A stretch of DNA of 64,000 nt from Eledone cirrhosa (GCA_964016885.1 OZ024752.1:1488001-1552000), one strand, 5' to 3'; shown: positions 3,871 through 47,908, counted from the stretch's first letter. The notes: a model not told the origin generated them from the letters alone. Numbers and translations: made by a program.

Positions 3871-4233
3871 ATATTGTTATACTTTGGGAGGGGGATGTTG
3901 TCAATAAGAAACACACGCACCAGTTGCTTTCACTTCAATTTATTATAATAAATTTATAATAAATTTATAAATTTATAAATTTCTGGTTGGTTGGTTGGTT
4001 CCACAACCAGATAGTTGTTTATATATTGTCAATATATAAACAACTATCTGGTTGTGGAACCAACCAACCAACCAGAAATTTATAAATTTATAAATTTATT
4101 ATAATAAATTGAAGTGAAAGCAACTGGTGCGTGTGTTTCTTATTGGCAACATGACTCTCCCAAAGTATAACAATATCGGTTTCAACACACGATTTCAGAT
4201 AAAGAATCTTGCTAAACAAATTCAGAAACGAAA
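3871..4233. mobile_element. Fold-back palindromic element between (TA)n tracts (palindrome 3871-4176, apex 4029; right arm extends to 4233)
   Basis: Near-perfect inverted arms around TATTG-T-CAATA. Homologous to the hammerhead-bearing fragment at 15990-16150 and a short fragment at ~23978-24006. Confidence 0.85.
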
Positions 4234-6692
4234 TATATATATATATATATATATATATATATATATATATATATATAACCAAAGTTTATATATATATATA
4301 TATATATATATAATGTATATATATGACGCGAATTACTTGGTCGTTTCTATGGTTGTGCGGATGACGGTTTAACCATCGTCTCAGTGTGTTTGGTCTTTAA
4401 CGTATGTTGTAGCTCTGGTTCGTCAGAATTATTGAGCGTTTGCCACTCATCTCGGAAGTTGTTTTCCGCTAATTCCAAAGCCGAAATACGATTCTCGCTA
4501 ATTTATATTTATATGTATATATATATATATATATATATATATATATATATATATATATATATATATATATATATATATATATGTGTGTATATATATATGT
4601 ATATATATATATAATGTGTGTGTGTGTGTGTGGATCACTATATATGCCTGTTAGATTACACATTTTCTTCTCTGTTAATCAATATTTTTTTACATATTAA
4701 TTTAAACCGATGAATATGAATTTCCTCATCTATCGCTGGTCCCATTAAACTATGAGAGTGAAAATATAATATTCTGAACATTCCTTGCTTCAACGTAAAA
4801 TATTTTATGTTCCTTTTTACTGACAACTAATCTATAAATTATCATCCCTTTGATCGATTTACTACATGTCCTCAATTATTATTACTGAAAACTGTTTTGT
4901 AAATCTGTATATCGCAAACAATGAAAAACATATTTCACACGGTTTTTAATATATATTCCATGGCAGCCTGTTTTTAAATAAAAAAGAAAAAAATATTGAG
5001 CAGAATAACTTTAAAAAATAATAATAATTACGTAGGTAAAATAAAATATAGCAGGAGTAAATAAAACTAAAGAACGGACAGATTGATATTGTAAATCTTA
5101 CGCGATGTCAGAAATAAGATTGTAAACATTGAATAAAATTGTTATCCTTGTCATAAAACCAGCCTTGAATGTAATAAACTGGATATTAAATGAGCTCAAA
5201 GTTAGATAAGAGCTAAGGAAGGAAAACAGTTCACTCCATTTTGAAAACACAATTTTGATGTAGAGTTTACCCTAGGAACAACCACTATAAAATGTAAGGC
5301 TGACGTAAAGAAATAACTATGTGAAATTAAAACTGATCAGTCAATAAAACTGTTGAGCAGTAACGAATATTTGACGATAAACAAATTATAAGATAACGGA
5401 GAGAGACACCAGAATACTTCAAACACACAGACACACAAACACATGAATCACAGAACTCACACAAAAAGTCCCTCATTCACACTCACAAATTTTATATATA
5501 CATATATATATGTGTATGTGGGGTGGGGGTGGGTGTTTTGGTGCGCGCACGCGTGTGTGGATGAATGTATCGAATTTCAAAAGTTATTGGCTCAAATGGT
5601 GGCATGGAAGTTACACACTTGCTAGAATTTTAACAGAAATTACAGGATTAAGAGACAATATGCTCAACACACACACACACACACATATATACATATATAT
5701 ATATATATATAGAGAGAGAGAGAGAGAAAGATAGATGGATACATATGAGAATCTTATTACATTCAGGAAACCTGTTTATTCATACACTATTAGGAAAAAC
5801 TAGTGTTAAAAATTCAGGAATACGTATAGGAAATATGGAATGCATTAGACCATCCTACACGATTGAAATTGTGAATATTTAACCTATCTAACAGTCATAT
5901 ATACATACATACATACATCTATATATATATAAATAAATATATATATATACATATACATATATATATATACATATATATATATATATATATACACACATAT
6001 ATATATACATATACATATATATATATATATATACATATATATATATACATATATATATATATACATACATATATACTTTGGCCTTAATAATCTTCATGTA
6101 TGCGTGTGCGAGTGTTTCATGTAGAGGTAGGTATCTTTGTTGTTTTTGTTGTTGTTGTATGAGCACTATAATATGTTGATGGCTGAAGGCAACTCGACTT
6201 CAGTCACACAATTGAATCTCGTTTCAAGCATTCTGCTTTCGTATTACTTCTTCTGACATAGCTTGGTACTCATTCGCCTGGGGATTTAAGGGTTCTCAGC
6301 CACGCTGTTGCGGCATGATTCGCGACACGATACATTAGGAATTTACGTAGGGTATGATCGTGAATCTTTTTCATAAATTTACAGTTAGACACATCCAGGC
6401 ACGCATAGACATACAGAAATAAACATGCTGATACACACACACCCAGTGAATTATGCACACACAGACACACACACACACACACACACACACACACACACAC
6501 ACACACACACACACACATATATATATATATATATATATATATATATATATATATATATATATATATATATATATATATATGTATATATATATATAATATA
6601 TATATATATATATATATGTATGTACATGTATATGTATATACATATATATATATATATATATATATATATATATATATATATATATATATATA

Positions 6693-6965
6693 TCATCATC
6701 ATCATCATCATCGTTTAACGTCCGTGTTCCACGCTTGCATGGGTTTTGACGGGGTTTTCCCACTTGAGGCAAGAGTGATTATCTTGCTCGCATAGGACTA
6801 TCTGGCGGGTTTTCTACAGCTGGATGCCCTTCCTAACACCAACCACGTTTACAGTGTGGGTCTGGGAGGTTTTTACCGTGTTGCCTACACGGCCACATTA
6901 CAGCCTGGACTGTGTGTTTTTTTGACGTGACACCTACACGATCTCATTTGTTTCGGCCTGGATGT
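6693..6965 (-). mobile_element. SINE/RTE-tail type interspersed repeat ending in (GAT)n
   Basis: (CAT)n run followed by CGTTTAACGTCCG..CATGGGTT and CTACAGCTGGATGCCCTTCCTAAC..AACCAC. This layout is typical of RTE-tailed retroposons; family name not verified. Confidence 0.55.
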
Positions 6966-7740
6966 TATATATATACATATATATGTAATTATATATATAT
7001 ATATACATATATATGTAGTTATATATATATATATATATATACATATATATGTAATTATATATATATATATATATACATATATATGTAATTATATATATAT
7101 ATATATATATATATATATATATATATATATATATATATATATATATATATATATATACATATATATGTAATTATATATATATATACATATATATGTAATT
7201 ATATATATATATATATATATATATGTAATTATATATATATATATATATACATATATATGTAATTATATATATATACATATAGTAATACTAATAATAATAA
7301 TTGTTTCTCCTTTTGGCACACGGCCACCAATTACCCAATACATATATATATACATATGCATATATATATATATATATATATATATATATATATATGTGTG
7401 TGTGTGTTTGTGTGTGTATATATATACATACATATATGCATATGTATATATATGTATATATATATATGTATACATATATATATATATATATATATATATA
7501 CATATTCCTATATATATATACATATGTATTTATATATGCATGTGTATATATTGTGTGTATACATATATACATGTACATATATATATATATATATATATAG
7601 ACATATGCATATATATGTGTGTGTGTATATATATATATATATATATATATATATATATATATATATATATATATATATATATATATATATATATATATAT
7701 ATATATATATACATATATATAATATATACATATATATAAT
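6966..7740. repeat. Compound (TA)n microsatellite/minisatellite
   Basis: Repeated (TA)n-CATATATATGTAAT units followed by mixed TA/TG runs. Confidence 0.9.
7290..7337 (-). mobile_element. 3' tail fragment of tRNA-derived SINE family 1
   Basis: Reverse complement reads TGGGTAATTGGTGGCCGTGTGCCAAAAGGAGAAACAATTATTA, matching the ends of the full copies (e.g. 63147-63333). Confidence 0.75.
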
Positions 7741-47261: not shown

Positions 47262-47445
47262 ATAGGAACCAGTAAGACCCCGACAGCTGAGCTCAAGCCG
47301 TTTCGACTTGAGAATTAGCCGTCGAAACGGCTTGAGCTCAGCTGTCGGGGTCTTACTGGTTCTTATTACCCACTCTACTACCTCAAGTATTGAGTACTTT
47401 GGTGCGTTATGGTCCACCTGGTTCCTTACCACATTTCCTTCGTTA
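47262..47445 (+). mobile_element. Family F fold-back (palindrome 47262-47366) carrying the 3' half of a hammerhead
   Basis: Arms contain GAAA-CGGC-ttgagctca-GCTG-TC-GGGG. Long arm ends at (TA)n. Relatives at 53321-53431, 54532-54640 and 37376-37457. Confidence 0.85.
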
Positions 47446-47475
47446 TATATATATATATATACATATATATATATA

Positions 47476-47908
47476 TATATTGGTAAAAGGAAAAGAAAAT
47501 GCTGACAAATCAAATTGTTCCCAGTGAAAAATTGTTTAATTATGAATAAGTAAAAATTAGTAATAAGTATTGGTTAGTATTCAGTTTTAGTTTTAAGTTT
47601 TTACCGGTTGCGCATTTCTAATGCTTTTCAAAAATAATTTTGAGATATAGCGCCCGTGATGTTTGCTCTAATCTGATCAGTTTTGGAAATTCTACCTGTT
47701 TTATGTGAAAAAAGTGGCTCCAGAGGTATTAAAATAAGTTTCACGCCGTGTTGAAACTTAAAACTAAAACTGAATACTAACCAATACTTATTACTAATTT
47801 TTACTTATTCCTAATTAAACTATTTTTCACTGGGAACAATTTGTCAGCATTTTCTTTTCCTTTTACCAATATATCACAACTCGTGTGTTACACCTCTATT
47901 CTTCTAAA
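47476..47908. mobile_element. Inverted-repeat element: arms 47476-47600 / 47754-47873, right arm extends to (TA)n
   Basis: About 120 bp reverse-complement arms. A hammerhead directly abuts the left arm. Confidence 0.85.
47599..47634 (-). ncRNA. Minimal hammerhead, UUGAAAA core, GAAA mutated to GCAA (family E relative)
   Basis: TTT-TTGAAAA-GCAT-tagaa-ATGC-GCAA-CCGG-TA-AAA. Stem II covaries with GCAG/CTGC of 37881-37916. Confidence 0.55.

Follow-up and report, generated by a model that had tools for sequence, protein, structure and literature searches.

A 64,000-nucleotide stretch of Eledone cirrhosa DNA (GCA_964016885.1 OZ024752.1:1488001-1552000; hereafter the window) contains numerous terminal-repeat fragments of Penelope-like elements (PLEs); the fragments are embedded in (TA)n and many of them bear type I hammerhead ribozymes. 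Three inverted, 5'-truncated fragments begin at +1, +2 and +4 relative to H17, the predicted cleavage site of the hammerhead. We put the chances at about even that they begin there because a minority of the RNA templates had cleaved themselves before reverse transcription. Run-off at the self-cleaved 5' end is the simplest account of the three ends. It is possible that these are a fossil trace of cutting in the cell, yet the route would be a minor one and the coincidences could be chance.

The first junction is a head-to-head palindrome of family A (3871-4186), with its apex at 4029 and a 1-nt centre. The arms, which begin at the predicted H17+1, align to a relative at 16106 from exactly this position (4031 and 4027 correspond to +1). 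The first-pass annotation had placed the apex at the cut site, and the position is correct, but the reference ribozyme is damaged: the type I hammerhead at 16100-16144 (minus strand) is degenerate, with a U3·G8 core, a G as H17 at 16107 and a mismatch in stem III. The register is nevertheless backed by a distant family A relative (24170-24220, minus strand), since its canonical core (24214-24181, H17 at 24181) puts the cut at the same place. A read-level or assembly fold-back artefact was rejected for the palindromes, as their arms differ by substitutions and indels; those of 3871-4186 are ~90% identical. The 1-nt centre is what would be given by a cDNA ending at +1 and folding on a 2-nt self-match, or by two such ends annealing.

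The second junction involves a family D inverted arm (47754-47869, plus strand) that starts at +2 of H17 47602, next to the predicted product end, as had been claimed. Its partner (47480-47734, minus strand), a family D copy, continues across a U3-A8 hammerhead left uncut (core 47631-47625, with GCAA instead of GAAA) and reaches ~-132, where the upstream end was placed by the drop in read depth. In a family relative (37713-37971), unlike at this locus, GAAA is present in both arms. Between the two pieces, the junction (47735-47760) forms a 9-bp local hairpin (-5.8 kcal/mol, z -3.1) whose stem is a copy of the first bases of the +2 arm, as in a mini snap-back, which suggests a free DNA end at +2. 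Templated inserts are typical of polymerase-theta end joining, and the hairpin resembles these. Because the partner strand passes through the uncut ribozyme, the +2 arm would be a second cDNA, if run-off explains it. It is from this one junction that in vivo cleavage by a U3-A8 core would be argued.

At the third junction, a family C piece (37458-37620, plus strand) lies head-to-head with a 'tail-only' piece of family F2 (37379-37459, minus strand; +17/18 to +97). The start of the family C piece, previously placed within 1-3 nt of the product end, moves to +4: its local alignment begins at 37458, and the preceding bases belong to F2, which ends at 37451-37459. The two pieces overlap by 2 nt, and the start becomes +6 if the overlap is assigned to the partner. 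As the partner is a tail-only F2 piece, no simple snap-back can produce this junction. The snap-back proposed by the first-pass annotation fits the palindrome at 4029; at the other two junctions, where the partner passes an uncut ribozyme or comes from a different family, the joining of two cDNAs is more likely.

We mapped 12 sharp inversion ends in the window, at +1, +2, +4, +17, -8, -19, -25, -35, -70, -112, -123 and -132, plus nine looser upstream ends (~-80 to -185). With one count per palindrome apex, these total 21 ends, and they exclude family F (+5), whose ribozyme could not be established, as well as seven families in which no ribozyme was found. Under a null assumed to be uniform over 200-300 nt, the ends at +1 to +6 are enriched among the sharp ends (3 of 12, binomial P 0.0015-0.005) as well as among all ends (3 of 21, P 0.008-0.024), and an interval of -5 to +6 gives P 0.05-0.13 for the 21 ends. 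The three coinciding ends come from three unrelated families (A, D and C) and all lie on the downstream side of H17, which is what run-off requires; three of the four mapped ends downstream of H17 are no more than 4 nt away from it. A scan statistic gives a probability of 17-88% that any 6-nt window holds three ends. Clusters are thus common, and the test draws its force solely from the site having been predicted beforehand.

Although real, the three coincidences amount to a modest post hoc enrichment and are weaker than had been claimed. Cases already recognized as not coinciding remain so: 37842 (~-70), 47307/47311 (-25/-35) and 62329 (-123). To these we add 54532 (-8), the F2 end at 37458 (+17/18), 35263 (-19), 35264 (-112), ~47734 (-132) and the nine looser upstream ends.

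Several observations weigh against cleavage as the origin of these ends. A symmetric ±3 window holds 2 of the 21 ends (P 0.09-0.17), and although the mechanism calls for a one-sided window, how wide to make it was decided once the data had been seen. The reference ribozymes of the first two junctions are damaged copies for which relatives set the register, and judging from its sequence the 16107 copy should not cleave as it stands. Published work adds that animal PLE ribozymes cut weakly in vitro (PMC4209133). For Poseidon of Anolis, insertion in vitro did not depend on cleavage and used mainly uncut RNA, and the hammerhead cut was neither the start nor the end of any RNA-seq read (PMC11167929). 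Genome-wide reads from two families display no +1 peak among the ends listed. Of the six loose ends listed per run, with 843 further rows beyond the listing, none falls at +1, that is, at 47347 for F2 or 47601 for D. Depth is flat across the D cut site (2359 to 2404 in run X7, 1910 to 1903 in run X8), the loose-end consensus at 47360 crosses the uncut triplet in all four runs, and no opposite-strand joint starts at +1 among the 10 listed of 26.

These reads come from four of nine runs, aligned to 47311-47753 (443 bp), a segment that covers F2, which is not among the three cases, and D. They comprise 13,968 reads placed from contigs of this organism, 1,294 from contigs of another organism, and 25,687 and 25,482 from two raw-read runs of restriction-site-associated DNA (RAD); run X1, from which the window may derive, is not independent. 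At ~25,000 reads per RAD run over 443 bp, both families have a very high copy number. The lowest listed loose ends hold 740 and 685 reads, against a depth of ~12,900 (F2) and 1,900-2,400 (D). If the list is ranked by reads, a single-base peak is below ~6% of depth in F2 and below ~1/3 in D, a multi-base peak being bounded less tightly. The listed joints start at -2, +14 (four joints), +18, +26, +42, +54 and +57. We rejected the joints and loose ends at 47360 as an arm start, as they reflect an alignment break from a diverged subfamily, and the four +14 joints are thus uninformative. Piles of read ends at 47313, 47541, 47636/47639 and 47688/47691 were also rejected as biology: the libraries are RAD, three of the piles flank AATT, and they represent restriction ends. 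Ligation chimeras at restriction sites probably account for the mixed loose ends at 47313 and 47639. We judge the RAD bias against truncated copies to be mild, because AATT is frequent in such DNA.

Since reads mostly traverse the ribozyme site in F2 and D, most copies derive from uncut RNA. A minor +1 peak is compatible with these reads. The first-pass interpretation is partly supported: 3 of the 21 window ends lie at +1 to +6, but there is no dominant +1 breakpoint in the F2 and D reads. For R2 and Perere-3, a ribozyme-defined end means that most full-length copies start at the cleavage site; here 3 of 21 window ends do, and most F2 and D reads cross it. Run-off remains the simplest account of +1, +2 and +4, tempered by the post hoc nature of the enrichment and by these reads.

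From features visible in the DNA (hammerhead motifs, 3' ends in (TA)n, pieces arranged head-to-head, and their offsets from H17), we infer the following steps. The PLE enzyme would nick (TA)n and prime cDNA at one of two 3' start sites. On cut RNA it would run off at +1, while on uncut RNA, the majority, it would stop at random or at some upstream end. The free cDNA end would then be trimmed by 0-5 nt. At 4029, the end would fold back or anneal through a 2-nt self-match; at the other two junctions, it would be joined to another cDNA that was primed on the opposite target strand, at 47754 with a mini snap-back inserted, and at 37458 with a partner of a different family and a 2-nt overlap. Joints of two cDNAs and the two 3' ends of F2 agree with the in vitro behaviour of a purified PLE enzyme, which acts on both target strands, cutting as well as extending them, and initiates at two sites (PMC11167929).

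It could instead be that PLE copies are truncated and inverted at many positions and that three were picked post hoc from about twenty. We regard chance as unlikely, though well short of negligible. It accords with the 18 of 21 ends that do not coincide, with the shift of the family C piece to +4, with the symmetric ±3 test, with the lack of a peak among the listed F2 and D read ends, and with the near-perfect palindromes that also occur at -70 and -123. It is harder to reconcile with a cut site that was predicted independently of the breakpoints, with three ends on the expected side, three of the four downstream ends being within 4 nt, and with the one-sided P of 0.0015-0.024.

Structure without cleavage could also gather ends near H17 on uncut RNA, since the 3' strand of stem I begins at +1 and the enzyme may stall or switch template at the folded ribozyme. 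The family C start (+4 to +6) falls inside the 6-bp stem I of that family, further ends lie inside ribozymes at -8, -19, -25 and -35, and uncut RNA was the main template in PMC11167929. A stalled enzyme would, however, be expected to stop where stem I has its outermost 3' base, at ~+7 in families A and C, rather than at +1, and stem I of family D has only ~3 weak pairs. A snap-back through stem I would moreover retain the core between the arms, and the core is absent at 4029. We consider stalling improbable. Very little credence is given to DNA-level events after insertion, such as a deletion between two adjacent insertions, a palindrome losing its centre or an endonuclease cutting inside older copies. 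The junction at 37458 joins two families, as deletion between neighbours could also do, its F2 side ends at the short 3' end of F2, and local templated copies exist in the window (54471-54527 is a 100% identical inverted copy of 53956-54012). Such events nevertheless offer no reason for ends at H17, and a 1-nt-centred palindrome is not the usual outcome of centre deletion.

Hammerheads were identified with a descriptor scan of the window, which returned 11 type I motifs at a score of at least 9, compared to 0-2 in each of 10 shuffles. Nine of them belong to families C (H17 18258, 18772), D (37771, 47602), E (34915, 38493, 38809) and L (62206, 62452). The other two are the family A relative at 24181 and a motif at 42854 outside any repeat family; the latter (42802-42854, plus strand) is a lone hammerhead-like motif at the score threshold and may be chance. 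A scan for palindromes contributed D 37913 as well as family N (17987 and 37299, degenerate cores), and inspection by eye with alignment added A (16107) and F2 (47346, 53340). The Rfam scans yielded spurious hairpin matches; the hammerhead models gave no match at the gathering threshold and none among the best 150 of 309 matches by E-value, which may mean that minimal PLE hammerhead variants escape these models. Metagenome pattern scans gave 0 and 2 matches, one of which (L002) is GC-rich and lacks family context.

All type I features (core 3-9, paired 3·8, GAAA, NUH and stems I-III) are found in both copies of C, D 37771/37913, three copies of E, two of L, and 24214. Single copies deviate: 16107 (G as H17), 47602 (GCAA), 53340 (C3·A8), N (degenerate core) and F (no 5' core). 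On free folding, C, E2, L and D 37771 adopt the stems expected of them, whereas D 47602 does not. The family C ribozyme is canonical (18252-18334, minus strand, H17 18258), with C3-G8, a palindromic stem III and GUU; a second copy (18766-18848, minus strand, H17 18772) lies in a partial tandem, 98% identical and 514 bp apart. Families D and E have the U3-A8 core. In family D, a palindrome at 37713-37971 with its apex at 37842 (~-70) carries a whole U3-A8 hammerhead in each arm (H17 37771, minus; 37913, plus). The family L palindrome at 62163-62495 (apex 62329, -123) has a whole canonical hammerhead in each of its arms. The two family D subfamilies (47600-47677 and 37769-37915) are alike only upstream of +2, with similarity falling right past the cut site, which could be due to ribozyme conservation or to module exchange at the cut. 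Run X5 shows F2 and D to be present in a second organism as well, and there the depth over the D ribozyme region greatly exceeds that of the flanks, which is a sign of conservation.

Family E contains, at 34788-35360, a U3-A8 hammerhead (H17 34915, minus strand) and an inversion whose ends lie at -19 and -112/-21. The first piece spans the 3' end to -19 and the inverted one -112 to -21, so that the inner ends nearly meet inside stem II. Twin priming of L1 has a similar layout. A 316-bp tandem dimer of family E (38324-38926, plus strand; H17 38493 and 38809) is retrozyme-like; at 38430-38522 and 38746-38838 an unusually long stem I (~28 bp) surrounds the U3-A8 core, with a fold of -43.5 kcal/mol. 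Family F2 forms an inverted pair at 47265-47443, with arm starts at -25 and -35, one short and one long 3' end, and H17 47346 on the plus strand. A whole F2 hammerhead is present at 53323-53430 (minus strand, H17 53340), with a C3·A8 mismatch in this copy, a long stem II and a hairpin stem III, and a further F2 piece (54532-54637, plus strand) starts at -8. The inverted copy at 54471-54527, 57 bp in length, adjoins the 5' end of this piece. Both tail-only pieces, 37379-37459 and 54471-54527, have their 5' ends at the family's short 3' end (F2 +17/18; F +200). These may be a second class of non-random ends, arising through collision with a second enzyme on the RNA or cutting there. Upstream ends at -110 to -135 from H17 recur in different families (17871, 18373/18887, 35264, 47734, 62329), possibly by run-off from a natural transcript start.

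The window is AT-rich animal DNA (GC 0.24-0.41) with abundant (TA)n, (GA)n and (CA)n. After masking, a BLAST comparison of the window with itself gave 77 repeat pairs, many of them head-to-head with (TA)n at their ends. As in PLEs, the 3' ends of the fragments sit in (TA)n microsatellites, and partial-tandem pseudo-long terminal repeats occur together with an inverted, 5'-truncated copy. Short and long 3' ends are seen in F2 and C, and the reads show both for F2, with loose ends that pass into (TA)n at 47357 and 47366 in addition to the long end; in family L the left arm is longer. A 5'-truncated open reading frame (ORF) end of family F encodes a C-terminal GIY-YIG endonuclease (17136-17714, minus strand; Pfam GIY-YIG, E 4.8e-05), its reverse transcriptase core having been lost by truncation. 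Only one of 202 candidates is a longer relative, an Octopus bimaculoides protein with 43% identity. This ORF is linked to family F and not to A, C or D, and no other convincing ORF piece was found in the window. Families A, C and D are assigned to the PLEs by architecture. The C-terminal position of the predicted endonuclease argues against Naiad, while CxxC and two His in the family F ORF, compared by eye with PMC8557442, would argue against Hydra.

The inverted terminal repeat of family F (17678-17859, plus strand) is fused to the truncated ORF and starts at +5 past a half hammerhead motif. This consists of a stem, GAAA, stem III and AUC; its 5' core and stem I could not be established. The start at 17678 is a possible fourth case if the family consensus has a full core. 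Motif and palindrome scans found no hammerhead in the repeat families at 3104-3764/39042-39761, 7832-8583, 20046-20194 and 52495-53280, nor in the repeats at 54849-55498, 61779-61952 and 32874-32965/38126-38216. The first of these is PLE-like (39042-39761, 3104-3385, 3498-3764): at 39042-39761 two long arms with a common 5' end surround a partial extra copy, and the copies at 3104 and 3764 share almost the same first base. The window also contains a tRNA-derived family resembling short interspersed elements (12900-13124, 41793-41903, 49721-49966, 58089-58540, 60585-60794, 63120-63344; A/B box-like motifs by eye), including a tandem pair at 58089-58540. ORF pieces at 33758-34505 (plus strand) resemble, by eye, the C-terminal zinc-knuckle region of the reverse transcriptase of long interspersed elements.

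Many of these features are known from PLEs. Type I hammerheads with a short palindromic stem III and a U3-A8 variant, heavy 5' truncation, an inverted truncated 5' copy, junction palindromes, a one-ended tail, (TA)n targets and a GIY-YIG at the C terminus are common to the window and described PLEs (PMC4209133, PMC8557442, PMC3846280), as are partial tandems (PMC8557442, PMC3846280). Tails are ~80 nt in the window and 30-40 nt in described PLEs (PMC4209133, PMC8557442, PMC3846280). The U3-A8 core has ~1,300 matches in Schistosoma mansoni PLEs, and we found no cleavage assay of this variant in the accessible parts of that paper (PMC4209133). The role of the PLE hammerhead is stated to be unclear (PMC8557442), and junction palindromes have been explained by self-priming on an antisense template (PMC3846280). 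Poseidon shares with the window the cutting and extension of both strands, two reverse transcription start sites that make the tail, and AT-rich targets (PMC11167929).

Ribozyme-defined junctions are documented for the hepatitis delta virus-like ribozymes of R2 (PMC3774820) and the twister variants of Perere-3 (PMC8501958), where, as here, genomic 5' junctions are read as a record of cleavage. In those elements the ribozyme is located downstream of the cut and sets the regular 5' end of full-length copies (PMC3774820, PMC8501958), whereas the window hammerhead is upstream of the cut, is removed by it and marks a minority of ends. cDNA made by R2 forms 'join', 'snap-back' and 'extra template' junctions (PMC11331408). 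Non-LTR retrozymes derive from PLE terminal repeats (PMC7229834; bioRxiv 10.64898/2026.07.22.740005) and share with the window short non-coding hammerhead monomers and dimers (the 316-bp dimer of E, the 514-bp partial tandem of C). Head-to-tail tandems with one hammerhead per unit and no ORF are present at 38324-38926 (E) and 18202-18887 (C), and not at the three junctions. Retrozymes are defined by such tandems and by circular RNAs (PMC7229834; bioRxiv 10.64898/2026.07.22.740005), while the feature studied here is head-to-head junctions. Precedents thus exist for inverted PLE ends, for the U3-A8 core and, in R2 and Perere-3, for junctions defined by a ribozyme. No relation of inversion point to ribozyme cut was found in the accessible parts of PMC4209133, PMC8557442 and PMC3846280, nor did we find a paper tying PLE truncation or inversion points to the hammerhead cut in a search that supplements and most subscription papers lay outside.

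The window ends would be the in vivo trace that is missing from the Poseidon data (PMC11167929), and the junctions bear on how PLE inverted repeats arise. A one-sided peak of genomic ends at the cut would show germ-line cleavage and that the cut RNA can be copied; given the very high copy numbers, the question is tractable from an assembled octopus genome alone. More tentatively, and with considerable doubt, we propose that cephalopod genomes hold a countable record of in vivo PLE hammerhead cleavage, U3-A8 included. A sharp class of ends at H17+1 to +4 would then tell, by its share, how often the RNA of each family had been cut by the time it was copied, and the inverted structure would be built by a dimeric enzyme that joins two cDNAs from separate RNAs, even of different families, head to head.

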